Positions 3,333 to 39,773 of a DNA stretch of 64,000 nucleotides are shown in pieces. The stretch covers positions 184,150-248,149 of the IMG/VR virus record IMGVR_UViG_3300031555_004524, one strand, 5' to 3'. The notes under the pieces are model-generated. The model ran no database searches, was not told the origin of the DNA, and worked only from the letters and a program-made list of their open reading frames with translations. The stretch is from a virus (Duplodnaviria > Caudoviricetes). How positions within the stretch are numbered: position 1 is the stretch's first letter; each line of letters begins with the position of its first letter. A program made the position numbers and the translations under genes.

Positions 3333-4784
3333 ATGAAGTATGATACACTCCACGAAACAGTTATAAGAGACGTGTTAGATATACTTTCTGATACAAAACA
3401 GGCTGCTGATAAATCTATTACGCCGAGTTCACGTGTTGCTAGGTCAGGTTCAATAAGTAAGGCAACTTCTGGTCTTACTTTAGTATTTCCTGTCATTGGG
3501 TCTACTAATAATTCATTAGAGACTAACACTATGGTTGTAAAAGCTGTCGAAAGACAAGCAGTATCACTTTTACAGATTGCATTTTCTGCATTCAACCTTA
3601 CAAATGCAGCAGATGCTACAGAATTTATTAAACAATTTCATACCAATTTAAGTGGTGGAAAATTATCCTTAGATCAGTTTATTGAAATTATGGATGATTA
3701 TGTGCAAGAGAATGGTTTAGTGCCACGAGAAACCAGAGGAATGTACAACGCTGTTTTAGAAGACCTTAGAAATTTATCATACCATTTTGCGGATGATATT
3801 TCTGAATCTTCTATCAACCAGTTTAAAGTTCGTCAGATGGGATTTAATCGAGTAGTGATTAAAGAAGAATTATCTGAAGATGAAAAAGATGCTATGAAGA
3901 GAGATGAGCATGAATGGAAAGGCAACCAGCAGTATTATGATTATATGGGAAATGTCCGTTCAGATGCTAAAGATAAAAGAGATGCTGAAAAGCATAAATG
4001 GGATAAAGAAGATCGAGAGAGAAATATTGCTAGAGATAAAAGAATTGATAAAAGATTAGATATGAGAAATGATATTCAGAATCAGAAAGATATGACTGAT
4101 GTATTCAAGAATCAAATTTTATCTAGCGATGTTAAGAAGATCAATGAAATGGTTCCAACTATGATGATTGTAAATTTCATTACAGTTGATAAATCAATTG
4201 AACAGCCAATTTTAAGACAGGTTGTAATTGGAGTTAAAGCGAAATTCTATCCAGCTGATTCTCAGGATGTAGTAAATAAGATTATCACAAAACACGTTGA
4301 TGGTAATTTATTACTCAAACTTGTAAAAGCATCTACTAGAGAAATCAGTTTTGTTAAAGATTTCTTATTTGCAATTGATAATGCTAAATTATCTGCAGTT
4401 GCAAATTCTAAACATGGTTCTAGAACTAATAAGTTATTAAAAGTTTTAGAACGTAGAGCATTAGGTGGTAAGATTCGTAAAACATTTAAACTTGATAATG
4501 CATTCAAAGCTATTTCTACTTTAGTTATTTCTAAAGACGAAGCAGACTATATTATGCAGGAAAATAAGATTGATGTTACTAATCCTAGAATAATGCGACC
4601 TATTATGGAAAAATTAAACTTGATGATGTTTATCATTGCAGATGAATCTTCAGAGTCTATTCAGATGATTATGGATAGCGGAGACGATGTATATGAAACA
4701 TTATCTTTCTCTCAGTTAGAACGAGAAGCATCAGATTCAAGTTCTAAGAAAGCAATTAACCTCATGACTAAAATGGTTAGATAA
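3333..4784 (+). CDS. Virion (head) structural protein
   Basis: 483 aa; late promoter; several [ILV]-x-E motifs; codon usage typical of highly expressed genes. Confidence 0.6.
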   Translation: MKYDTLHETVIRDVLDILSDTKQAADKSITPSSRVARSGSISKATSGLTLVFPVIGSTNNSLETNTMVVKAVERQAVSLLQIAFSAFNLTNAADATEFIKQFHTNLSGGKLSLDQFIEIMDDYVQENGLVPRETRGMYNAVLEDLRNLSYHFADDISESSINQFKVRQMGFNRVVIKEELSEDEKDAMKRDEHEWKGNQQYYDYMGNVRSDAKDKRDAEKHKWDKEDRERNIARDKRIDKRLDMRNDIQNQKDMTDVFKNQILSSDVKKINEMVPTMMIVNFITVDKSIEQPILRQVVIGVKAKFYPADSQDVVNKIITKHVDGNLLLKLVKASTREISFVKDFLFAIDNAKLSAVANSKHGSRTNKLLKVLERRALGGKIRKTFKLDNAFKAISTLVISKDEADYIMQENKIDVTNPRIMRPIMEKLNLMMFIIADESSESIQMIMDSGDDVYETLSFSQLEREASDSSSKKAINLMTKMVR

Positions 4785-7213: not shown

Positions 7214-9577
7214 ATGAGCAATCTTTTGAATTTAGATCATATGTTTATAGAAAGCTCTTTTTTAAAAGCTTTAAATAATTCTGTTATTTCTGAATCATAC
7301 AGATCTTCAGTATTAGGTCCATTAAAAACTTTTAACGAATCTTTTAATATTAATACTGAAAAATTATATATGAGTATTTCAGAAGCAGAATCGAAAGAAA
7401 AAGAAAATGATATTTTTACTCATTATTTTAGTGAAATTGAAAAATCATTTTCTGAATTAATTAAACAGATATCTGAAGTTGAATCTAGATTTGTTATTAG
7501 AGTAGATAATATGGTAGATGCAAATATGGATATTCTTAAAAACACATCTGCACTTTCAGATTGTAAACCATTTCATTATCGAATGTATGAATTTAAAAAT
7601 ATTTCAGATGCAGATTTTCCTAAGATTAACCCATTATCAATTTATAATAAAGAATTTGATTTCATGGGACAGCTGTTACAGGATCTCGGTCCAGCTGCAA
7701 CAAATCAAATGAAATTGCAGGTTATTGCATCTGTATACAATATGCTCAATAAAGGAAATTCAGATCAGCTTACTAAGAAATGTGTAAAAGATATCTTAGA
7801 TATGGATGATGATGACGATTGTGATATCGCTAAATTTCCTAAAAAATTATATGAAAAATTTAGAAAAGATGAAGCAAAAGATCAAACTATTGATAAAGGA
7901 ATACTTTATTCAATTCAGTTGTCTTTAAAGAATTATAAGACAGCTGTTGCTGCTGCTACATCTACATCAGATAAATTGATTTCACAGTTTGAAGAAATAA
8001 AGAGAAGTCTTTTAAGTTTTATTTCTGGAACTCCAAAGAATACTCTTGAAATTAACACTCCAACTGATGGGGTTAAAAATACTACTTATAAAGTAGATAC
8101 ATATACAATGAATCAGTTAGATTTATTTATGAAAACTAAAATAAATCAGATTGTTCAGATGGCTAATATCTACGTTATTGCGTTATCTGTTAAACTTGAT
8201 GCTATTGTAGAATATTATAAACAATGTAAAGATATTTTAGTAATGGCTGAAATGAATTCTTCTGGTATTCCTGGAACTTCAGAGGATAATCAGGTTGATA
8301 CTGATACAAATATGGGAGATGAATATCCTGTAGAAGATGACGGTCCAACTGGAGAAGAAGATCCAGAGGATGATGACGATGACGATTCTGATGACGGAGA
8401 TGACGATTTATCTGAACCTACGGATGGCGATGATAACAATACAGATTTATCTACAGAACCAGTAAATGATGATAACGATACTGTTTCAGATAATAGTGAA
8501 CCGTCAAATGATAATTCTGATAAGGATGATTTATCAGATGAGTTAGATGAAGCTATGAAAGATTTCGAAGAAGCATGTATTTTAGCTGAATATCAGATAT
8601 TTGCTATTGAGCAGGAAAATGCTAGAAATGAAATGTATAATAGAGTATTATCATACTACAATGAAGATGGAGAAGGATCAGGCGATGGTCAGAGTAGAAG
8701 TGGTACTACTTCATCTACAACAACCACATCAACAACTACAAGCTCTAGTAGTGGAGGAACAAGTATTTCTAACGCTAAGAAAGCTGTTGATCAGTCTGGT
8801 AAGGAATCTATCATCAATGCTATTATTAGAAAATTAGATGAACTTTGGAGAAATTTCCAGGAAAAGATTTTTGTTCAATCTACTAGACGTTTAGAAGTTT
8901 TAAAGAAAAATGAGCGTTATATTAACACTGAACCTTTTGATATGTCTGGTGATAATATTATGCCACGAATCAAAACAGAAGCTATTTCTGATATCTCTAT
9001 ACCAGATTTCAACTATAACACTATGAAAGAAAGATTATCTAATGAAGATGAATTTTTCAAGAAATCATGGCCTAATATCGAAAAATCTGATGATCAGAAA
9101 GTCAGTGATGCAGTTATTAATCATATTATTGATTATAACGATCCATATAAGAATACAAAAGAAATTCTTCCAGCTAAAGCATACAATTGGTGTAAAACAT
9201 ATCCATCTATGAAAGATCAGTTAGCTAAAGATATGAGTATTCTTAAAAAAGGTCAGAATAATGCTAAAAGAGTAGCTAAACAGGCAGTAAATTCTGAAAG
9301 TGCAACTTTAGAAAATACTATGAAATCATATTTCTTAGAATTTGATAAACCAGAAGAACCAAAGAAAGATCCTTCTGATAATACACCATCAGATAATGCT
9401 CCAGCAAATGTGACAGTATATTTTAAAGTATGTAATCAGGTATGTAGAGCAAAACTTACAGCTATCCAGAGAACTTTCAATGAATATACTGCATATTTAT
9501 TATGGCATATTAACAAGAGACGTGAAAATGAAGGTTCGCCAAAAATTGGTTGGATAAATCAAAAGAATAATAAATAG
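7214..9577 (+). CDS. Large internal head protein with acidic and Ser/Thr linkers
   Basis: 787 aa; two apparent domains separated by a D/E-rich linker and an S/T run; many x-x-E motifs. Confidence 0.6.
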   Translation: MSNLLNLDHMFIESSFLKALNNSVISESYRSSVLGPLKTFNESFNINTEKLYMSISEAESKEKENDIFTHYFSEIEKSFSELIKQISEVESRFVIRVDNMVDANMDILKNTSALSDCKPFHYRMYEFKNISDADFPKINPLSIYNKEFDFMGQLLQDLGPAATNQMKLQVIASVYNMLNKGNSDQLTKKCVKDILDMDDDDDCDIAKFPKKLYEKFRKDEAKDQTIDKGILYSIQLSLKNYKTAVAAATSTSDKLISQFEEIKRSLLSFISGTPKNTLEINTPTDGVKNTTYKVDTYTMNQLDLFMKTKINQIVQMANIYVIALSVKLDAIVEYYKQCKDILVMAEMNSSGIPGTSEDNQVDTDTNMGDEYPVEDDGPTGEEDPEDDDDDDSDDGDDDLSEPTDGDDNNTDLSTEPVNDDNDTVSDNSEPSNDNSDKDDLSDELDEAMKDFEEACILAEYQIFAIEQENARNEMYNRVLSYYNEDGEGSGDGQSRSGTTSSTTTTSTTTSSSSGGTSISNAKKAVDQSGKESIINAIIRKLDELWRNFQEKIFVQSTRRLEVLKKNERYINTEPFDMSGDNIMPRIKTEAISDISIPDFNYNTMKERLSNEDEFFKKSWPNIEKSDDQKVSDAVINHIIDYNDPYKNTKEILPAKAYNWCKTYPSMKDQLAKDMSILKKGQNNAKRVAKQAVNSESATLENTMKSYFLEFDKPEEPKKDPSDNTPSDNAPANVTVYFKVCNQVCRAKLTAIQRTFNEYTAYLLWHINKRRENEGSPKIGWINQKNNK

Positions 9578-9592
9578 GAGGTAACTTGAGAA

Positions 9593-11278
9593 ATGGTTAA
9601 ATATCTATACAATGATTTATCTAAAGTTAATGATACTATTTATGAGAATCTTATTATGGCTATCGTTAATAATGTAAAAGAATCATTCTTAGAAAACCCA
9701 GATTATGATTTCCCTCAGGTCAGAACGGAAAGTTTATTGGAATCTGATATTGAGCGATTAACAAAACTTGCAAGTGTATTCGGTTCTTTTAAATTTGAAA
9801 GATTATTAGAAGCTGCAAAATCAGTTAATCCTATTGGATTAGTATATAATGATTTTATTACATGTAAAGAAAAAGTTGAATCTCATTATAATACTATTAT
9901 AGAAAATATGAAAGAATCTATCAAAGCTGCAGTTACAGAAGAATGTGATGGTATTCTTGGAAATTATGATCCATTTATCAAAACTTTAGTTGATCCTGCA
10001 TTTGCAAATACTATTGGAGCTTCAAAAAGTTCATCTGACAATATTTGTTTCATTAAAGAAAATACACATTCTGTAACAAGAGAAGACATTTCAAATGCAA
10101 TCTCAGTAATTGAGAATTGTGCTGATAGTGCTAGAGAACTTATTTCTATTGCTGAAAAGAAATGCTGTGAAACAAAAGAAAAGCTTACTATTATTAGTAA
10201 CGATATGGATAAATGTGTCAAAACAGTTCATGGTGTTGGTAAATCTACCGTAAAAGAAGCTATTGTGGCTGCTTGTTATCATGAAATGTATGATATGGTC
10301 AATCATGCACATATTGTGCAGTTAGAAAATCAGTTAATAGAATCAGTTAAACAGTCTTACAAAGTTTTAGCTATGGTAGCTAATCATAATCCAAGAGATT
10401 TGAAAGATTCTATTATCAGAACAGAATCTGTTTGCTTTATTGCTGAACAGGAATTTGATAGTGTTATTGAAGAGACTGTAGGAATGCATATAAGTGAATT
10501 TCTTATGGAAGGTGCCGTTAAAAATGCATTTGATCAATTTAAAGCTAAAATTACTTTAAGTAATGAAAGATTTCTTAAAAAGCATAAAGAAGCTGCATTG
10601 AAATCTAAATGTGATGGCATCACTATTGAAAAATGGTACATTCCTAAAGATATCAATGCTATTCATAACAAAGTTATTGCAGAAGTTAAAAAAGAAATGG
10701 ACCCTGAAACTAAAGATGTTAGAGAACTTAAAGCTAAATGGAAAGATATTTCTGGTACTTTTTTACTTGGAGGGGCTGACTCTAAAGGAGTTGCTATTTC
10801 AGCTAAAATGCTTGACGGAAAACAAGCTGCATTGATTAAAGATTTGGCACATAATGTTCAGAGAGATCATAAAGTTACACCATCCGATGTAAAAGAAGCT
10901 GTTAAGTTTTTAGAAAATTCAGATGCTGAAATTACAAAAGCATATAATGAATATATGAAACGTTCTATGGGAAGTTCATATGCTTTATGGAACCCTAAAG
11001 TTTTAGGAAGAACAAAAGGCGAAAGATATGTTAAGAAAATAAATACATTCATGCAAATGGTTCAGGATAATATTGACCTTAACTATCAGAAAATGCTTCT
11101 CAGTCAGCTTAAAGTTAAACAGCAGCAGAGTAGAGTAATTGTTTTGAAGGCTGCTAGAGTTTCATCTAATGAGGCTGCTTCTATTTTAGAAGCTGAAATG
11201 AATATATTAGATGAATATTTTACATATTACGAAAATTCAATTGATGATACATTTAATAAATATTCATATGATGAATAA
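9593..11278 (+). CDS. Internal head protein
   Basis: 561 aa; GGAGG RBS; repeated VKE/FLE/LLE/IIE/VTE motifs; related in style to the 6009 and 7214 proteins. Confidence 0.55.
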   Translation: MVKYLYNDLSKVNDTIYENLIMAIVNNVKESFLENPDYDFPQVRTESLLESDIERLTKLASVFGSFKFERLLEAAKSVNPIGLVYNDFITCKEKVESHYNTIIENMKESIKAAVTEECDGILGNYDPFIKTLVDPAFANTIGASKSSSDNICFIKENTHSVTREDISNAISVIENCADSARELISIAEKKCCETKEKLTIISNDMDKCVKTVHGVGKSTVKEAIVAACYHEMYDMVNHAHIVQLENQLIESVKQSYKVLAMVANHNPRDLKDSIIRTESVCFIAEQEFDSVIEETVGMHISEFLMEGAVKNAFDQFKAKITLSNERFLKKHKEAALKSKCDGITIEKWYIPKDINAIHNKVIAEVKKEMDPETKDVRELKAKWKDISGTFLLGGADSKGVAISAKMLDGKQAALIKDLAHNVQRDHKVTPSDVKEAVKFLENSDAEITKAYNEYMKRSMGSSYALWNPKVLGRTKGERYVKKINTFMQMVQDNIDLNYQKMLLSQLKVKQQQSRVIVLKAARVSSNEAASILEAEMNILDEYFTYYENSIDDTFNKYSYDE

Positions 11279-25504: not shown

Positions 25505-27250
25505 TTAAAATATAGGAGCTGTTAAATGTTTTTCAGTTTCACCTAAAGTCAATGTTAAATTATATAAAACTTGCATAGCTTCATTTGAAGGTTTTCTCAT
25601 ATTTTTCCCATCAAGACCAATATAATTTTTTTTAGATTTAATATATTTATCTAATTCTTCATTAGCTTCTACTGTATATACACCTTTAATAGATACAGTA
25701 TCTCCATCATAGTCCCCTCCAATACCATTAAGCAATAAGTTGCAAATATTAAGCGTATCTATGAAATCCTGACTTGTATTTCTACCTACATCTTCTTGTC
25801 TAATTTTAGGATAATGTCGATACAATGTATTATTTACATATACAGGTTCAGTTTCCCTGATAGTATTTATTCTAAATTTAGATGGGAATTGATTATAGCT
25901 GGTATCTATAGGGAAACGAGTAATCAATATATGTTTATCTACTGCACATTCGCATGCAGCCATATAAAAAACGTCGCACCAAGTTAATTTTCTAGAAATC
26001 AATGGAGATGCATCAGTTACTCTTCCACTAGCCAGTTCCTCTGCAGTTACAGAATGACCTTTAAATGCAAGATATCCAACTTTTCCATCTAATAATGGAA
26101 CTTCAATAGGGGAAAATCTATTAGAGTATCCGTGAATAAATCTTTTTATTTCACCTTTTATTACATCTTCCGAATAAGAGATTAATGGGTCTTTTACTTC
26201 TGCATACATAATATCTCCTTTAGTGGTCATAACTTTATGCCTTATACCTCCACTAAATTCATTTTCAAAGAACCTCTTCACCCAATATATAATAAACGGT
26301 CTGAAGTTTACTATTGCAGATGCTAATGGTAAAGCGCAATGTTCTATATCTACCATCATATCGTTCATAGTTTCAACTTTCAATTCAGGAGCAGATAATA
26401 CTAATCTAGTTCCATCATTTGCAGTTTTACTCATAACTGCATTTCGAATTAAACCTTTCTTTTTAGATAATCCTACACCATCACTCTCTCCACTTCCAGT
26501 TCCACATAATACATCATAAATTTGTACCAATGTGTCCTGTATACGCCCCTTTACAGAATTAGACATAGATAATCCGTAATCCTGAGTTTCTATTAAAGCT
26601 CTTACAGAAATGATTAAAGATGAATAATACTTATTCAATACTCCAACTCCAATGTTTCCTCCTCTATTTTGAACGTCTCTATAATATGGTGGAATTACTA
26701 TGAATTTATTCATAAATATAACTTTTTTATATTTTTCTATGAATTGAATTTTCTTATCACGTTTTCTAGAATCTGTTGATTTTATTTTTATTTTATCTAT
26801 ATTATCTTTTAAGAATTTTACTCCGTTTGATCCATTTGGATCTTCTACGAAATCACCATCTGGTCCAATAGAATAAGTTTTAGTGCCATGAACTATTTCT
26901 TTTATTCTACTATCCATTCTTCCCCATAATTTATATACTAGCGGATGCAAAAACCAATCATGCAGATCTATATATCCAAATATATTAGATCTTTCTTCTT
27001 TAGTGATTCCGAATATTTCATTAGATAACAATCCTTCTGGAGTAGGAACTCCATCTCTAATAAAGAATACTGGATCTGTTATTTCTTTTACATTATTTGC
27101 TTTAATAAATGCGTCTACATTAAGAGGTTGCATCTGAAAATGCTTATCAGCAACTGCTTCATACAATGCAAAATTTTCATTAATTTTTAATAATTCCGAA
27201 AGGGAATGTGTATCTATCCCTCTTTCATATGAATATGAAATCATAGTCAT
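25505..27250 (-). CDS. rpoC: Phage multisubunit RNA polymerase beta'-like subunit (N-terminal part, catalytic DxDGD)
   Basis: GLLSNEIFG, FGYIDL, VIPPYYRD, KKGLIR, LITRFP and GGDYDGD occur in beta' order. At 581 aa it is a split subunit, as in AR9/phiKZ-like phages. Confidence 0.9.
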   Translation of the reverse strand: MTMISYSYERGIDTHSLSELLKINENFALYEAVADKHFQMQPLNVDAFIKANNVKEITDPVFFIRDGVPTPEGLLSNEIFGITKEERSNIFGYIDLHDWFLHPLVYKLWGRMDSRIKEIVHGTKTYSIGPDGDFVEDPNGSNGVKFLKDNIDKIKIKSTDSRKRDKKIQFIEKYKKVIFMNKFIVIPPYYRDVQNRGGNIGVGVLNKYYSSLIISVRALIETQDYGLSMSNSVKGRIQDTLVQIYDVLCGTGSGESDGVGLSKKKGLIRNAVMSKTANDGTRLVLSAPELKVETMNDMMVDIEHCALPLASAIVNFRPFIIYWVKRFFENEFSGGIRHKVMTTKGDIMYAEVKDPLISYSEDVIKGEIKRFIHGYSNRFSPIEVPLLDGKVGYLAFKGHSVTAEELASGRVTDASPLISRKLTWCDVFYMAACECAVDKHILITRFPIDTSYNQFPSKFRINTIRETEPVYVNNTLYRHYPKIRQEDVGRNTSQDFIDTLNICNLLLNGIGGDYDGDTVSIKGVYTVEANEELDKYIKSKKNYIGLDGKNMRKPSNEAMQVLYNLTLTLGETEKHLTAPIF

Positions 27251-33692: not shown

Positions 33693-35120
33693 ATGAATAA
33701 AAAATCTTCTGTATATAAAATATTTTCTAAAGATATGGAAGCGAAAATGAAAGGTACTTATCGAAAAAAATATAAATGCCCATATTGCGAGTTAAGAGCA
33801 ACTGTTAGCGATTTGGCATTACATATTGGAGATGAACACCAGGATATGATTCCTAAAGATATGACACCATTTCAGTTAGCAGTAAATGCTAGGGATAAAA
33901 AAGATAGTAGACCTTGTCTAGTTTGTGGGAAACCAGTAACAAAATGGAATCAGGATACTGGAAGATATGAAAGCTTCTGTAGTGATGACTGTAGAAAGAA
34001 ATATGCTAAAAGCAGAAAAGCTCAACGTGATAAATTAGGTGATACTGTATATCAACGAGAAGTTATGCTTAAAAATAAATCTAAAACTTATACTTTTAGA
34101 GATGGCACAAAGATGGATTATATTGGCACATATGAATTAGAATTTCTTAAATATATGGATACTGAATTAAAGATAGATCCTATGGATTTACAACAAGCAT
34201 ATCCAGTCATTCCGTATCAATATAAAGGTAAAACGCATCATTGGTTTATGGATTTTTACTATAAACCATACAATCTTGCTATAGAGATTAAAGATGGTGG
34301 AGATAATCCAAACACTAGACCAATGGAAGAATATAGAGAAAAACAATTTGCTAAAGAAGAAGCAATTACCAAACTTGGTCAATATAATTATATAAGATGT
34401 ACAAATAAAGACTTTAATCAGATAGTAGAAATATTAGAAGATTTGAGAGAAGAAGGAAATGATCCTAGAGATGTAAAAATTATTAGAGTGCATGAAAGCA
34501 CTGTACCTCTAGCATCAGTTCCTCCTGTTAAAAAAGATGACGTATATATCATAAATTATATGCAAAATAATGTTTTCTCAGAACCAACTCAAAAATTTGC
34601 TTTATGTAAAAGCTATATGAGCGATATTGTTGAGTTTGATAAAGGTTCATTTTCTCATATAAGTCTTGAAGATTTCAAACAGAAAGCTATAAATCCTACA
34701 TTATTTAAATATATTGGTGAGAATGGTATATCTTATATGAATATTGTAGATTTAGCTGAAACTGATAAAGATTTTTATGAGATACTGACAGGTAAAAAAT
34801 TATATAGTTATGATCAAATTCATTTTGATAAAACATTTGAAAAGACTATGCCTTTCACTAGAGTATTAGATTTATTAGAAGAATGCACATTAGCTACAAT
34901 CACTGCAGTGTATGCTAATACCGTAAAAGGTATAACTCTTCCTAAAATGGCATTATATGAATCTACTCAATTATACGATTCTATAAAATATTATAGAGAT
35001 TTGGGTGGAGTATATGCTATCAATGAAGAAACCGGTATAAGAACTGCATCTTATGAGAATAAAGAAGAAATACCATCAGATGCAATAGAATTTATAAAAA
35101 ATAAAACAGGGTTATTTTAG
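33693..35120 (+). CDS. Zn-finger plus PD-(D/E)xK nuclease (TnsA/T4 gp4 head-completion-like) protein
   Basis: CPYC...HIGDEH and CLVC...CSDDC fingers; IPYQYKGKTHHWFMDFY...IEIKDG nuclease motif; late promoter. Confidence 0.6.
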   Translation: MNKKSSVYKIFSKDMEAKMKGTYRKKYKCPYCELRATVSDLALHIGDEHQDMIPKDMTPFQLAVNARDKKDSRPCLVCGKPVTKWNQDTGRYESFCSDDCRKKYAKSRKAQRDKLGDTVYQREVMLKNKSKTYTFRDGTKMDYIGTYELEFLKYMDTELKIDPMDLQQAYPVIPYQYKGKTHHWFMDFYYKPYNLAIEIKDGGDNPNTRPMEEYREKQFAKEEAITKLGQYNYIRCTNKDFNQIVEILEDLREEGNDPRDVKIIRVHESTVPLASVPPVKKDDVYIINYMQNNVFSEPTQKFALCKSYMSDIVEFDKGSFSHISLEDFKQKAINPTLFKYIGENGISYMNIVDLAETDKDFYEILTGKKLYSYDQIHFDKTFEKTMPFTRVLDLLEECTLATITAVYANTVKGITLPKMALYESTQLYDSIKYYRDLGGVYAINEETGIRTASYENKEEIPSDAIEFIKNKTGLF

Positions 35121-35143: not shown

Positions 35144-35665
35144 TTATAATATACATCGTTCGATGAAGCCATGATTAGCTCCAACTACAGTCGATGTCAT
35201 ATTATCTACAGACATTATTTTTGAATTACTTATTACCTGGATGGTAACTTCTTCATTCCATGTGGTAGTAAATGAAATCCAAATGTTACCATATGTATCC
35301 ATAATAAGTTTATCTATATTATATAATTGATATACCGCTTTAATATCTGATTCCTTAATATCAGATAAGTTTTTATTGCGAGTATATTTGATTAAAGCTT
35401 GCGCTGATCTTTTATCTATTTCTTTTCTATTACTTAAGAAATATTTTAAAAGATTAACATGCTTTAATTCAACTTCATAAGTTCTATTCATTTGGATAGG
35501 ACAATTTTCATATACCTTTCCAAAGAATTTAGGCACATATGCTTCGGCATATGTGCATCCTATTTCGTCTTTATACTTTACGTTTTTGAATATTACAAAA
35601 GGTGATGATTCTGTAACAATACCTCCTTGAGTATTATTCTTGTCTAATGAATTTGTAAATAACAT
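35144..35665 (-). CDS. Hypothetical protein
   Basis: 173 aa; AAAGGAG RBS; early-type promoter at 35772-35790. Confidence 0.65.
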   Translation of the reverse strand: MLFTNSLDKNNTQGGIVTESSPFVIFKNVKYKDEIGCTYAEAYVPKFFGKVYENCPIQMNRTYEVELKHVNLLKYFLSNRKEIDKRSAQALIKYTRNKNLSDIKESDIKAVYQLYNIDKLIMDTYGNIWISFTTTWNEEVTIQVISNSKIMSVDNMTSTVVGANHGFIERCIL

Positions 35666-35771
35666 ATCGTTCGTCTCCTTTCTGTTTTCTTATTTTTTCG
35701 ATATGTCATTACATTTCATTATATCTTTCTTTTTTTGTTTAATTTGAATACTAGAGAATATTCTCTAGTAT

Positions 35772-35790
35772 TCATTTTTATAATATATAA
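35772..35790 (-). promoter_or_regulatory. Early-type promoter
   Basis: Minus strand TTA TATATTAT AAAAA TGA. Confidence 0.6.
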
Positions 35791-35819
35791 TTCAAAATGT
35801 ATGAATATTCACCAACCGA

Positions 35820-35831
35820 AACATTCAGGTA
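35820..35831 (+). promoter_or_regulatory. Late-type promoter AACA-N6-TA
   Basis: AACA TTCAGG TA. Confidence 0.7.
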
Positions 35832-35856: not shown

Positions 35857-37488
35857 ATGGTTATAATTATGGCACATTGGAATATACCACAGGGAAAATT
35901 ATCAATAGATGAAATAATTAGAGACGGTGGATATTATGATATAGATGGAATATGGAATTCCATAGTTAAAGTTGGAGATAAAATATATAGAGGGAGAGTA
36001 GAAACTTTTGTATTTGATGGGGATAAAGTTTATTTAAGAAAATCAAAGAGTGGATATCACTATTCAATACCAGGTGGATCTTGGGATAAATATTTATCTC
36101 ATCAAGATCAAGCACAAGCTGAAGTTAAAGAAGAAGCTAGAATATTATGTGAAAATATTCAGTATACAGGTATTACATATATAGATGAGCATGACAGACC
36201 AGAAAAACAGCAAGATGGTTATATATATTGGGATGGGAATTATAATGAAGTATATGTAGCAGAGTATGCAGGTCCATATGTAGGAGAAATTCATCCATTA
36301 AACAAAGACAATAGATTTACAAAATATGGAGATTTTTATCCTATTAAAGATATTATTCCTATTCTAAATCCTCATCATAGAAAGATTTTTAAAGAATATG
36401 AAGAGTCAGAATGTGGGACGTCAATCAAAGAACAAGAAGAAATATCCTCACAATCACAAGAATACATTGCACCGAACGATCAGAAAGAAAAATCCATACC
36501 AGTAGATTGGTTCATGCACTTGCAGCAATTATATAGAATATATAAGAATACTAATTCTGCTGATATTAGACAGAAAATCATAAATTTAGGATGGAATCCA
36601 GAAATTGAACCTACAGAAGATGCTGTCAGACATTTTATGAATTCGGAAGAAAATCCTATCCCTGTATTGAATGATAATGAAATTAAAAAAGAATATCCTT
36701 TTGATGAAAGTGTAATACCATCTGAATGGTATGATTCTATATTAGAGGTATGGGATACATATAAAAAGGATGATTCTATTGAAAATTTGGAATCATTATT
36801 AGAATTAGGATGGAATCCTGAAATAGAACCTAGCGTTGAGAATATAACTAAACTACTAAGTCTTCAGGAAGCTAGAAAAAATCCAAAATATATTCATATT
36901 AATGAAAATATTATTATTGATAGTCCTAATTATATGGCTAATATAGATAAGTGGGAGAATGGTAAATCTAATATACTGCTTATTACTGGTTTAAGTGGAT
37001 CTGGTAAATCGACTGCTGCATGGGCACTTGCGGAAGAGTATAAAGCTACAGCTATTCATTTAGATATGTTTCAGTGTTACTATAGATTTAAAGAAGAGGG
37101 GATCTCTAATAAATCTATGGAATATGTAGAAAAATATCTGAAACTTCATCCAGAAGCTAACAATATCGATTTTTCTGATATTAGATATAAAGAATTCGGT
37201 GCAATATTTAATAAATTTTTCTCATGGTTATTAAGTGAATTGAAGAAGGATAAAAAGAATAAATATGTTGTAGAAGGTGCACATATAATGCTCTTTACAA
37301 GCTATAAATCTTTAGATAAATTACCTATAATATGTCTTGGAACTTCATTAACTAAATCTACTATAAGAAGATGGGTTAGGGATAAATATAGTGCTTGGGA
37401 AATATTAAAATATGGTCCAGATGAGATAGTTTTATTTAATGATTGGGAAAAAGAATATAATACTTTTAAAGATAGCATAATATACTAA
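35857..37488 (+). CDS. Multidomain protein: NUDIX hydrolase + 2x LGWNPEIEP repeat + P-loop kinase-like domain
   Basis: IPGGSWD...AQAEVKEEARI (Nudix box), two W...LGWNPEIEP units, and LLITGLSGSGKST (Walker A) with YVVEG. Confidence 0.75.
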   Translation: MVIIMAHWNIPQGKLSIDEIIRDGGYYDIDGIWNSIVKVGDKIYRGRVETFVFDGDKVYLRKSKSGYHYSIPGGSWDKYLSHQDQAQAEVKEEARILCENIQYTGITYIDEHDRPEKQQDGYIYWDGNYNEVYVAEYAGPYVGEIHPLNKDNRFTKYGDFYPIKDIIPILNPHHRKIFKEYEESECGTSIKEQEEISSQSQEYIAPNDQKEKSIPVDWFMHLQQLYRIYKNTNSADIRQKIINLGWNPEIEPTEDAVRHFMNSEENPIPVLNDNEIKKEYPFDESVIPSEWYDSILEVWDTYKKDDSIENLESLLELGWNPEIEPSVENITKLLSLQEARKNPKYIHINENIIIDSPNYMANIDKWENGKSNILLITGLSGSGKSTAAWALAEEYKATAIHLDMFQCYYRFKEEGISNKSMEYVEKYLKLHPEANNIDFSDIRYKEFGAIFNKFFSWLLSELKKDKKNKYVVEGAHIMLFTSYKSLDKLPIICLGTSLTKSTIRRWVRDKYSAWEILKYGPDEIVLFNDWEKEYNTFKDSIIY

Positions 37489-37526
37489 TATATTATATAT
37501 CTAATATACACTTGAAAGGAGATATT

Positions 37527-39773
37527 ATGAGTAATATTATTTTAGAGCAACTAGCTTCAGATGAAGATTTAATTTTAACTGCAGAGCAATTAAAAAAATC
37601 TTTGAGATTATTGAGAGATGATGGATTTTGTAAAAATATACTGCCAAGAGACATTGAATCTGATAATGGAGGATGGTCTTTTGCAGAATATATTATAAAT
37701 TCAGAAGATGATAAAATTGAAGTAGAAAAATATATTGAATACTGTAGAAGATTAATAGAATCTACAATATATAGAGGAGAATTATCACATAACGTGATTA
37801 ATAATAGATCTGGAATACTATATTTATTTCCAGAAAATACAAGATATTCTAATAATGATATGGAATATTATAAAAGTGTATTTGGTGTTAGAGAAAATGC
37901 TGAATATATAGAAGAGGAAAATAAATCAGAATATAAATATAATGCGATAAAAAATAAAGATGATATAAATGATTTTTACAAATATTCTAAAGAAATTCTT
38001 AACGATGAAAATATTATGGATGAAAAAGATATCCGTAAATATATAAAGAAAATATATTTTAAAAATACATTTATAGGATATATAGGACTTACAAATTGTG
38101 ATGGAAAGAAAACTTCTAAAAAATATCTAGGTGTGCGTAGTTTTATGATACTACCAGAATATCAAAGAATGGGTCATGGTGCAAACATTATTAACGATAT
38201 AGTAGGAAGAAATAAAACAAAATATGATGAAATATTTTGTTGGGTAGAAAAAAATAATATAGGTGCTATCAATTTTTATCAGAAAATTGGAGATGTTTGG
38301 TTGGATAAGCTTTTTAAAAACAGATTATATTATGTAGTGCTATATAAAAAATCCAATACAAATGTTTCAGAGAATTCTAATTTAACTAAATTCGCCTGGT
38401 ATCATGCTGAAATTAAACGTGATGGATTTAATCCGAAGAAAGCTGGCGGATGGGATGAAGAATTGTATAGTAAAGATATTGAATCTTGTATTCATAATGA
38501 TATAGAATATAACTATCATTTTAAAGGTAAAGATAAAACTGAAGCATATTTATATACAGCTGGAGAAGAATTATCCTCTGTATATCTTGGAAAAATTACT
38601 GTATATAGAACTGATAAAGGTGTTGATTGGGAATGGTCCGAACAAGAACCTATTGATAGTAAGACTGTAGATTATCTAAAAAATGAAGTACAGAAACAAT
38701 TATTAGAGAATGGTGATATTGAAGATGTAGAGGAATATGCTCCATCTAGTTTTATAAAACGTAGTTCAAAACCAGCTAAAAATCAGAAAGCCCATAAAAA
38801 CTATTTAAAAAGAAAATCTAGAGGAAAAACAAATAATGCTACCGATCAAAAAGTTATGCCTAAATTTAATCAAATTGGTGAAGAAGCATTAACCTCTAAA
38901 CAGAGAAATGGGTTAGATGATAATGATTTTGGAATTCCAGAATTGAGAAAATATCCTATTCATGATAAGAAACATGTAGAACAGGCAGTAAAAATGTTTA
39001 ATCATGTGGATAAAGAGTATGAGAAAATATTAGCAAAAAGATTATTAAAAGCTATGAGAAAATTTGGTGTATCTACTGATAGTATTGGAGAAAAGAATAG
39101 ATTGAGATCATATATTTCTGAAACTTTTATATATGAGGCTGGCAAATCAAAGAAACCTATTAAACCAATATTTATTGTGAACTCCTTTACCAATACACCG
39201 TTTGGTAAAGTTATTAGTACATATACGCATAATAAATATAGTCATAGTGCTATTTCATTCGATACCAGTTTAGAAACATTATATTCATTCAATGCAGATA
39301 ATCAATCGAATATATTTGGTGGAATTTCAGTAGAATCTATTTCTGGATATATTGATAAATACGAAAATTCATCTATACAAGTTAATTGTTTATTCGTAAA
39401 GGAATCTGATTACGAGATTATACGAGATGCTGTTAATACTATGATAGAAAATAAAACGTCTACAGCGTATGGCTATAATAATCTTATAAATATTCTTTTA
39501 AATAAGTCTAAAGAGATGGGTCAAAATGCAATGAGTATGGTTTGTTCACAATTTGTAAGTTATGTCTTAAGTAAAGCTGATATACACCTTACAGATAAAA
39601 CTTCAAATTTAGTTACACCTAAAGATTTATCTACTATAGTTAATCCTAAAGTATACAAAGTATATGAAGGATATGCTAGATTATATAATAAATCAGCAAT
39701 AGATAGAATGATGCGAAAAGTATCTAAAAATGCTACTGTTATAAAAGAATATTCAATTAGACTAGATGATTAA
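37527..39773 (+). CDS. Multidomain polyprotein: GNAT acetyltransferase + DUF6582-like + permuted papain-like (YiiX/NlpC-P60) amidase
   Basis: MILPEYQRMGHG...NIGAINFYQKIG (GNAT); LDDNDFGIPELRKYPIHDKKHV; YSHSAISFD...MVCSQFVSYVL (His-before-Cys permuted papain). The start is set at the ATG after GAAAGGAG. Confidence 0.75.
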   Translation: MSNIILEQLASDEDLILTAEQLKKSLRLLRDDGFCKNILPRDIESDNGGWSFAEYIINSEDDKIEVEKYIEYCRRLIESTIYRGELSHNVINNRSGILYLFPENTRYSNNDMEYYKSVFGVRENAEYIEEENKSEYKYNAIKNKDDINDFYKYSKEILNDENIMDEKDIRKYIKKIYFKNTFIGYIGLTNCDGKKTSKKYLGVRSFMILPEYQRMGHGANIINDIVGRNKTKYDEIFCWVEKNNIGAINFYQKIGDVWLDKLFKNRLYYVVLYKKSNTNVSENSNLTKFAWYHAEIKRDGFNPKKAGGWDEELYSKDIESCIHNDIEYNYHFKGKDKTEAYLYTAGEELSSVYLGKITVYRTDKGVDWEWSEQEPIDSKTVDYLKNEVQKQLLENGDIEDVEEYAPSSFIKRSSKPAKNQKAHKNYLKRKSRGKTNNATDQKVMPKFNQIGEEALTSKQRNGLDDNDFGIPELRKYPIHDKKHVEQAVKMFNHVDKEYEKILAKRLLKAMRKFGVSTDSIGEKNRLRSYISETFIYEAGKSKKPIKPIFIVNSFTNTPFGKVISTYTHNKYSHSAISFDTSLETLYSFNADNQSNIFGGISVESISGYIDKYENSSIQVNCLFVKESDYEIIRDAVNTMIENKTSTAYGYNNLINILLNKSKEMGQNAMSMVCSQFVSYVLSKADIHLTDKTSNLVTPKDLSTIVNPKVYKVYEGYARLYNKSAIDRMMRKVSKNATVIKEYSIRLDD

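Follow-up and report, generated by a model that had tools for sequence, protein, structure and literature searches.

Phages and conjugative elements encode polyvalent proteins, which combine 2-15 conflict-type domains in one polypeptide, as described in the survey by Iyer, Burroughs, Anand, de Souza and Aravind (2017, PMC5512222). The T4 head protease gp21 cuts after L/I-x-E and is itself processed, and the proteins packaged by T4 bear propeptides of 7-65 residues that include a 10-residue capsid-targeting sequence (PMC9026906). The corresponding enzyme of SPN3US, gp245, cuts after A-x-E with a preference for Ser at P1', makes multiple cuts per propeptide and sheds its own C-terminal propeptide (PMC10052503). 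We analysed the final 64 kb of a viral record that is 248,149 bp long; this 64-kb stretch is referred to below as the window, and the whole record is labelled G000 (positions preceded by G000 refer to the record, all others to the window). Two adjacent genes of the window, p1 and p2, and the Zn-finger/nuclease gene at 33693-35120 may together constitute a late polyvalent-protein system, whose modules are delimited by head-protease sites and whose products would be packaged, cut and delivered with the DNA. As judged from sequence comparison, we regard this proposition as evenly poised between being right and being wrong.

Both genes encode strings of unrelated enzymes. Shine-Dalgarno (SD) spacing places the likely start of p1 at the ATG at 35869 (539 aa) and that of p2 at the ATG at 37527 (748 aa; SD AAAGGAG), and residue numbers are counted from these starts. 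Domain calls are based on Pfam with gathering cut-offs, PHROG, Foldseek and the AlphaFold predicted local distance difference test (pLDDT) of full-length p1 and p2. The sequence-only reading, an earlier annotation of this DNA, had proposed two open reading frames of this kind; both exist, and its domain description proved accurate by Pfam, Foldseek and PDB profile searches. All features of p1 and p2 given below lie on the plus strand. The p1 product consists of confidently predicted domains separated by low-confidence linkers (181-206, 261-280 and ~331-350). Its NUDIX module (residues 1-180, 35869..36408; Pfam 25.2 bits vs a cut-off of 21.1; pLDDT 78-96) has NUDT4, NUDT15, RppH and NudC as its closest folds (Foldseek, E~1e-6), and the Nudix box is divergent (…AEVKEEARI) with the acidic E-x-x-E-E residues kept. 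Glu188 of the sequence IKE|Q (36430..36432) lies within the first linker, and a helical region follows (residues 207-340, 36487..36888) which contains two ~50-aa repeats, each ending in LGWNPEIEP. These repeats read W..….Y.K…LGWNPEIEP…E and match no known family (Pfam gave noise only); relatives keep their end as LGWNPEVPV, and in relatives P0107-P0109 they accompany the P-loop module. The latter, a kinase-like module (36907..37485) with the Walker A sequence GLSGSGKS, is preceded by Glu346 of INE|N (36904..36906), which stands 10 residues ahead of the P-loop core and is invariant in 25 aligned relatives. Every Pfam match of this module is a kinase/NTPase family, all of them under the cut-off.

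The p2 product is longer and has low-confidence linkers at 1-17, 103-132, 278-318, 390-470 and 536-541. It begins with a seven-residue leader, MSNIILE|Q (37527..37547), in the first of these segments, followed by module A (37548..37832), which recurs in P0020, P0044, P0047 and P0106. A double junction, VRE|NAEYIEE|E (Glu123 and Glu130, 37893..37916; linker 103-132), leads to a GNAT acetyltransferase (37917..38357; Pfam Acetyltransf_1, 39.5 bits vs a cut-off of 20.7), whose closest solved folds in Foldseek are Naa50-type, also NatD, and in which the coenzyme A-binding motif QRMGHGA is present. Glu282 of VSE|N (38370..38372) stands at the start of linker 278-318. Next comes module C (38373..38708), which ends in LLE|N (Glu394); for modules A and C Pfam returned noise only and the Atlas gave no usable lead. 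Module D (residues 395-452, 38709..38882), ending in IGE|E (Glu452), is short, basic and mostly disordered. Its conserved peptide is KNQKAH..YLKRK..NNAT..NQIGE (in relatives …PAKNQKAH..YLKKR..NKTNNAT.Q.ELP.YNQIGE), it is 61-68% identical across many arrays, and it usually occurs just ahead of module F or at the array N-terminus; it might be a DNA binder or a targeting peptide. The DUF6582-like module (38883..39137) ends in ISE|TFIYE|A (Glu532 and Glu537) and scores 26.4 bits, below the Pfam cut-off of 27.3, and several relatives are labelled PF20223.

The last module of p2, module F (39138..39749), is a permuted papain-like (NlpC/P60-type) Cys peptidase or amidase by a profile search of PDB sequences, in which it matched PDB 3kw0 'cysteine peptidase' (E=1.5e-4), with fSHtGI aligned to THAAIS and CSEFV to CSQFV. 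We call it permuted because the His motif precedes the Cys motif; both residues are invariant among relatives. No peptidase family was found among its Pfam matches even at E<=5, and module F may thus be described at best as a distant relative of the permuted papain-like amidase/NlpC-P60 superfamily (YiiX/C92-like). It is nevertheless the most widespread module in the array family. At the p2 C-terminus (39741-39773) we observed an invariant I-K-E (Glu741), which ends seven of seven aligned F modules and is followed by 3-8 residues (for example VIKE|YSIRLDD and LIKE|CSL). The C-terminus might be trimmed here, in the way that T4 Alt is processed at its own C-terminus.

The modules of p1 and p2 are freely reshuffled in related phages. 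We found 40 protein clusters related to p1 and 87 related to p2, nearly all on 200-280-kb contigs, and a module map of 124 relatives bears out the domain shuffling that the sequence-only reading had wished to see compared, with p1 and p2 modules recombined in many orders. The whole of p1 is fused to pieces of p2 in P0044 and P0049, P0047 consists of NUDIX, A and F, and P0053 has two copies of F; further modules (DUF362, HAD, metallophosphatase, STAND NTPases) are inserted in other relatives. Neither p1, p2 nor the gene at 7214-9577 had a match among 50,697 cultured-phage records in nucleotide and protein searches, and cultured relatives were found only for module F (weak matches, in Fusobacterium phages) and for the Zn-finger/nuclease gene.

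This shuffling made it possible to look at junctions in many unrelated contexts. We defined a strict motif, hydrophobic-x-Glu-[Ser/Asn/Ala/Gly] (h-x-E-[SNAG]), aligned the modules on their cores, inspected the sequence upstream and counted each distinct far-upstream context once. The element is found 8-20 residues ahead of the module core, even where the sequence further upstream is unrelated. Against a background of 0.24 it was present at the N-edge of module F in 30 of 37 contexts (p=4.5e-13), at that of the P-loop module in 19 of 22 (p=1.3e-9; the Glu is fixed at -10 in 36 instances) and at that of GNAT in all 10 (p=6.5e-7). Every well-sampled module thus carries a predicted gp21-type h-x-E site at its boundary. 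The junction element is often doubled (NESYIEES, NESVIEEE, LLESAILEE; VRENAEYIEEE and ISETFIYEA in p2). Across 91 non-redundant array proteins the strict motif is over-represented (842 vs 504±23). All such counts are taken over relatives that are not fully independent of one another. An annotation-free test, with breakpoints taken as the positions where architecture-breaking local alignments begin, led to a similar picture: a motif Glu lies within -8..+20 at 61% of 380 homology-start peaks vs 28% at random, and there is a sharp spike where alignments start 1-5 aa before the Glu.

It was plausible to consider that the junctions might be linkers for recombination at the DNA level. We rejected this idea, as junction DNAs are no more alike than random in-frame windows (identity 5.42 vs 5.41). 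As, moreover, the P3 and P2 residues vary and the Glu is encoded by a mixture of GAA and GAG, selection acts on the peptide and not on the DNA. The same element occurs where there is no module upstream: N-terminal leaders that end in h-x-E within 10 aa are enriched in arrays (41% vs 23%), as in MSNIILE|Q of p2 and MDSIYE|S, MDNIITE|T and MNNINE|S of relatives, and F proteins that stand alone begin with a leader of ~42 residues in which two sites occur. Every junction site that the sequence-only reading listed for p1 and p2 lies in or beside a low-confidence AlphaFold linker.

A protease that might recognise such sites is encoded by the same phage. G000 contains genes for a terminase large subunit, a major head protein and a head-maturation protease of the T4 gp21 type (G000:35049-35891; Peptidase_S77 PF03420, 30.9 bits vs a cut-off of 27; PHROG 207/3014). 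Six proteases of the clade share an invariant Glu (Glu186) in [LV]-[SN]-E-[GNS], exactly at the point where the catalytic domain gives way to a gapped linker, and a second Glu in [VI]-x-E-[TS] at residues 11-13, which recalls LIE-9 of T4 gp21. Another sequence of the protease, VNE|S (212-214), was considered as an autocleavage site that leaves 66 residues (64 in SPN3US), and was rejected because it is not conserved in the clade alignment; Glu186, being invariant there, is preferred. The major capsid protein (G000:29400-31256) was found with PHROGs, the T4 Gp23 Pfam model having found no capsid gene. Its head-protein profile covers residues 304-605, and its strict sites, at Glu 61/62, 92, 125 and 215, all lie upstream of the profile-matched stretch, with none past 215. 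At each of two columns ahead of the shell domain, E62 and E92 in G000, a motif Glu is found in 88% of 40 distinct clade capsid proteins; the variants are VQE|S, ILNE|S and MLHE|A in the first column and FIE|G and FVE|N in the second. Site density amounts to 3.9 per 207 aa in the N-terminal region and 1.35 per 414 aa in the remainder. As the capsid and protease sites share it, the clade protease probably prefers hydrophobic-x-Glu|small, which is also the junction signature.

The sequence-only reading had stated that the motif peppers the head proteins of the window, and this is true of two of them. The motif is mildly enriched in the rest of the proteome (592 vs 520±22), and the strongest enrichment among the 246 genes belongs to 9593-11278 (plus strand), a 561-aa helical protein encoded beside the head genes, with 17 h-x-E-[SNAGT] sites vs 4.9 expected (p=1.4e-5). 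It has no PHROG or Pfam match and is a possible scaffold or core protein, which the head protease would cut into small pieces in the manner of T4 gp22. Four strict sites (FIE|S, ISE|S, FNE|S and ISE|A) are clustered in the N-terminal 58 residues of the 787-aa product of 7214-9577 (plus strand; homologue in locus L004), and the next ~390 residues contain none. This pattern is propeptide-like, and the product could be the portal or else some other head protein that undergoes processing. The statement failed for the proteins at 3333, 4811 and 5982, whose motif content is unremarkable.

On sequence grounds the putative system extends beyond p1 and p2 and includes the gene at 33693..35120 (plus strand), its first gene, which has a late motif 31 nt upstream. 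Residues 1-269 of the product comprise two Zn-fingers and a nuclease-like module (PHROG 15137 'endonuclease', E=7.6e-28; the treble-clef Zn-finger matches are all below Pfam cut-offs), and an extension spans 270-475. The module ends in IIRVHE|S, with Glu269 at 34497-34499 (plus strand). In 14 relatives examined it ends in a conserved [IV]-x-[IV]-N-E, exactly where the downstream sequence diverges. At 21 related loci, baseplate-hub-like and small wedge-like genes on the opposite strand diverge from the homologue of 33693-35120, which has a late motif and is followed by an F-array and then by homologues of 15961, 15024, 14516, 13497 and 11302. In six loci (L006, L008, L010, L011, L021 and L022) the Zn-finger/nuclease module of ~270 residues is fused to the array N-terminus, giving proteins of 1,000-1,879 residues; in L011 it ends in VNE|SVLNE|SILINE|K and the P-loop module follows directly.

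Stand-alone homologues of ~237 aa are found in AR9 (g233), PBS1, Staphylococcus and Listeria jumbo phages and phiR1-37, where g237 is annotated 'phage structural protein'. AR9 g233 adjoins g232, 'base plate wedge subunit', and the homologue is not mentioned in the PALS2 and phiR1-37 RNA-sequencing papers. In the cultured Fusobacterium phages JD-Fnp1/4 the gene directly after the Zn-finger/nuclease gene encodes a module-F 'cysteine peptidase' that begins MSILKEIAE|S…YGE|A, and this gene pair (JDFnp4_17 and _18 in JD-Fnp4) would represent a small two-gene version of the system. The Zn-finger/nuclease homologue of JD-Fnp4, a 180-kb phage (L026, 17682-19720), bears the annotation 'DNA gyrase subunit A', apparently in error.

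Judged by its sequence, the record is distantly related to AR9 and PBS1, two jumbo phages of Bacillus. One head protein matches AR9/PBS1 virion proteins at 23-28% identity, the DNA has a guanine-cytosine content of ~29%, ribosome-binding sites are strong and of Firmicutes type, and both AR9 promoter types, early and late, are recognisable in it. In AR9 both types were defined experimentally, the late one, used by the non-virion RNA polymerase (RNAP), being AACA-N6-TA/G (PMC5312081). Genome-wide, AACA-N6-TA/G occurs upstream of 59 of 245 genes in the sense direction vs 8 in antisense (3.3 vs 0.43 per kb). The late promoter assigned to p1 and p2 by the sequence-only reading could be located: an AACA-N6-TA element, AACATTCAGGTA (35820-35831, plus strand), 25 nt 5' of the first p1 ATG, fits the AR9 consensus and by its motif would be an AR9-type late promoter. 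Because p2 has no promoter of its own and starts only 38 nt after p1, the two genes are probably co-transcribed late.

Between the Zn-finger gene and p1 lies a divergent gene of 173 aa (35144..35665, minus strand) with an early-type promoter, which is outside the array; in relatives the Zn-finger gene directly adjoins the array. An exact AR9-type early motif, AATTATATATTAT-N6-G (35773-35792, minus strand), is directed at it. A perfect 30-bp palindrome, TGAATACTAGAGAATATTCTCTAGTATTCA (window 35745-35792), abuts this early-type promoter, between 35144-35665 and p1, and might serve the early gene as an operator or form a hairpin in its leader. At 25505-27250 (minus strand) the window encodes a multisubunit RNAP beta-like subunit (PHROG 2986, E=1e-79) with a late-type promoter, and because of that promoter it is probably a subunit of the virion RNAP, packaged for early transcription.

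Several observations, besides the incomplete independence of the relatives, weigh against the idea that the arrays are packaged and cut by the head protease. Within p1 and p2 themselves the motif is at chance: [ILV]-x-E occurs 14 times in p1 vs 11.2±2.8 in shuffles and 16 times in p2 vs 12.2±3.0, and, per Glu, a hydrophobic P3 is found in 17/42 cases in linkers vs 27/71 in domains (p=0.84, both proteins together). With one site per 40-47 residues, any junction has an [ILV]-x-E nearby. Therefore the argument of the sequence-only reading, that the motif marks the junctions of these two proteins, is not evidence, and in a single genome, where x-x-E is no commoner at junctions than within domains, it fails. 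The motif rises above chance only across relatives, and it is thus the comparative data that rescue the boundary-site idea. Even there, the strict motif was not significant at the edges of the DUF6582, NUDIX, A and C modules, for which contexts are too few or other P1' residues occur. Motif depletion in folded cores, expected under strict cleavage, was not found overall: F cores contain 91 motifs vs 57±7 expected, P-loop and NUDIX cores are at expectation, and only GNAT cores are depleted (2 vs 8.1 expected). Accessibility, and not sequence alone, would therefore have to decide where cutting occurs. In the AlphaFold model the N-terminus of p1 belongs to the NUDIX fold, and p1 has no leader. 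Finally, the conserved neighbourhood of the Zn-finger/nuclease gene is that of the baseplate (genes for a gp26-like hub and a gp25-like wedge protein, or g232 in AR9), where a prohead protease would not act, and the AR9 record bears no virion-protein label on g233.

One plausible alternative is that the products remain uncleaved and work as multi-domain late enzymes in the infected cell, the h-x-E-small element being a linker motif that serves docking or marks a folding boundary. The motifs retained inside cores and the missing leader of p1 would be in line with this, and delivery without processing is known for polyvalent proteins, among them the N4 virion RNAP (PMC5512222). Still, we consider this explanation unlikely. 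At P3, P1 and P1' the element has exactly the signature of gp21-type proteases, it is found again in the N-terminal region of the capsid protein and at the end of the protease catalytic domain, and it marks N-terminal leaders of 5-9 residues, where a linker role makes little sense.

The baseplate synteny leads to a second alternative, in which the Zn-finger/nuclease module would anchor the arrays on the baseplate or tail near the hub, F would be a virion-associated wall peptidase, the other enzymes would be delivered via the tail, and any processing would be due to something other than the prohead protease. The conserved synteny with the gp26-like and gp25-like genes speaks for it. The strong Firmicutes-type SD sequences suggest a Gram-positive host, and in phages of such hosts NlpC/P60-type domains are commonly virion-associated peptidoglycan hydrolases. 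On the other hand, the junction signature equals that of head-protease substrates, and F is permuted, a type for whose known relatives a cell-wall role is not established. The region also holds the late-promoter RNAP beta-like gene at 25505-27250, and in phiR1-37 the RNAP beta gene near g237 bears the annotation of a structural protein; as the neighbourhood may thus mix virion RNAP and baseplate genes, the synteny would not be decisive. Taken together, this placement of the arrays seems to us quite unlikely, and less so the uncleaved enzymes just discussed.

It is improbable, in our view, that module F processes the arrays itself, in cis or in trans, in the manner of the papain-like proteases of RNA-virus polyproteins. 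F is indeed the commonest module and keeps its His and Cys, and autoprocessing by a resident peptidase has been proposed for DdrB of phage P1 (PMC5512222). However, many motif-bearing arrays have no F (for example the p1-like P0089-P0109), the capsid protein and the protease conserve this motif too, and cleavage after Glu with a hydrophobic P3 is documented for gp21-type serine proteases and not for papain-like enzymes. That the coincidence of motif and junction is due to chance in an Ile/Glu-rich proteome, as the expected counts and equal per-Glu rates in p1 and p2 might suggest, is hardly credible at the level of the family, where positional conservation in dozens of contexts and three unrelated folds and the breakpoint test both reject it.

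We thus favour the reading of a packaged, head-protease-processed system. Under this reading, each product would be an array of independently folding modules, each with a flexible leader of ~8-20 residues that starts at h-x-E|[SNAG]. The arrays would be built into the prohead, after which the sites would be cut by the head-maturation protease of the T4 gp21 type; the arrays would in this respect behave as polyproteins do, yielding single enzymes, which would be carried in the virion and enter the next host together with the DNA. Incorporation into the head, cleavage and ejection are steps that we infer from sequence. More specifically, and more tentatively than the reading as a whole, we propose that the head-maturation protease doubles as a polyprotein processor, and that any enzyme module with a short leader starting at hydrophobic-x-Glu|small can be plugged into an array which hitch-hikes into the virion on the Zn-finger/nuclease carrier or on a short leader and is then cut, the freed enzymes being injected with the DNA. 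Such a plug-and-play loading of effectors would evolve through the shuffling of cassettes. The domain families, and these only, suggest that in the host the enzymes might hydrolyse nucleotide signals, acetylate, phosphorylate or cleave amides, and that they might have a part in counter-defence.

If the arrays are indeed cut and injected, tailed phages would possess a polyprotein strategy like that of RNA viruses. This would explain how polyvalent proteins can be highly mosaic and yet functional, since a new enzyme would be added simply as a module with its own cut site. NUDIX, GNAT, kinase-like and peptidase modules would act in the first seconds of infection, before phage gene expression, when counter-defence is most useful. 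The h-x-E rule would also provide a sequence rule to predict packaged effectors in uncultured jumbo phages, and a natural design principle for loading cargo into phage heads, a purpose for which the T4 capsid-targeting leader is already in use.

How, then, does this locus compare with the systems described so far? Polyvalent proteins and Glu-specific head proteases are known already, and what would be new, as far as sequence can tell, is a set of shuffled arrays with a head-protease-type site for each module. The literature found, to the extent that its text was accessible, describes no shuffled multi-enzyme family with such a site per module on a conserved virion protein. The likeness to polyvalent proteins is considerable: the arrays have at least two conflict-type domains, their architectures are mosaic (124 relatives, 21 loci) and the phage has a terminase. 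As in the survey and in a jumbo-phage overview (PMC5512222, PMC7824862), GNAT, kinase-like, NUDIX-type and peptidase domains occur in one chain, mosaicism among relatives is extreme, the phages are of the portal/terminase kind, and packaging and delivery with the DNA are predicted. In the accessible portions of these papers, however, processing is proposed to be due to resident peptidases (MPTase and others) and no common boundary signature is described, whereas a gp21-type h-x-E is found here; the present arrays, moreover, are spread over two or three adjacent genes and attached to a conserved Zn-finger/nuclease virion protein.

The Zn-finger/nuclease proteins themselves are comparable with AR9 g233, PBS1 gp124 and phiR1-37 g237, each an 'endonuclease fused to N-terminal Zn finger domain', which are homologous to residues ~25-257 of the 33693-35120 product at 30-33% identity and are encoded at the same position, beside baseplate genes. 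Those proteins stand alone and end where the arrays described here begin. The inner-body proteins of phiKZ, 201phi2-1 and SPN3US, with their proteases gp175/gp245, belong to the same broad jumbo lineage and include tens of internal head proteins (PMC10052503, PMC9026906). Cleavage in that group takes place after x-x-Glu with Ser preferred at P1', multiple cuts are made and the protease undergoes C-terminal autoprocessing. Their motif is A/S/G-x-E, whereas P3 is hydrophobic here as in T4, and the cuts in that group serve to remove propeptides, not to part one enzyme domain from another; searches of cultured phages found no sequence similar to p1 or p2. The internal proteins and Alt of T4 resemble the arrays in late expression (predicted for the arrays), in short leaders ending in L/I-x-E (p2 has a leader of this kind, p1 has none) and in a protease of the same family, and T4 ejects enzymes (Alt) and anti-restriction proteins (IPI) with its DNA (PMC9026906). 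In T4, however, there is one effector and one leader per gene, whereas here up to seven modules share a chain with internal sites, and because of this a single targeting event could load many enzymes.

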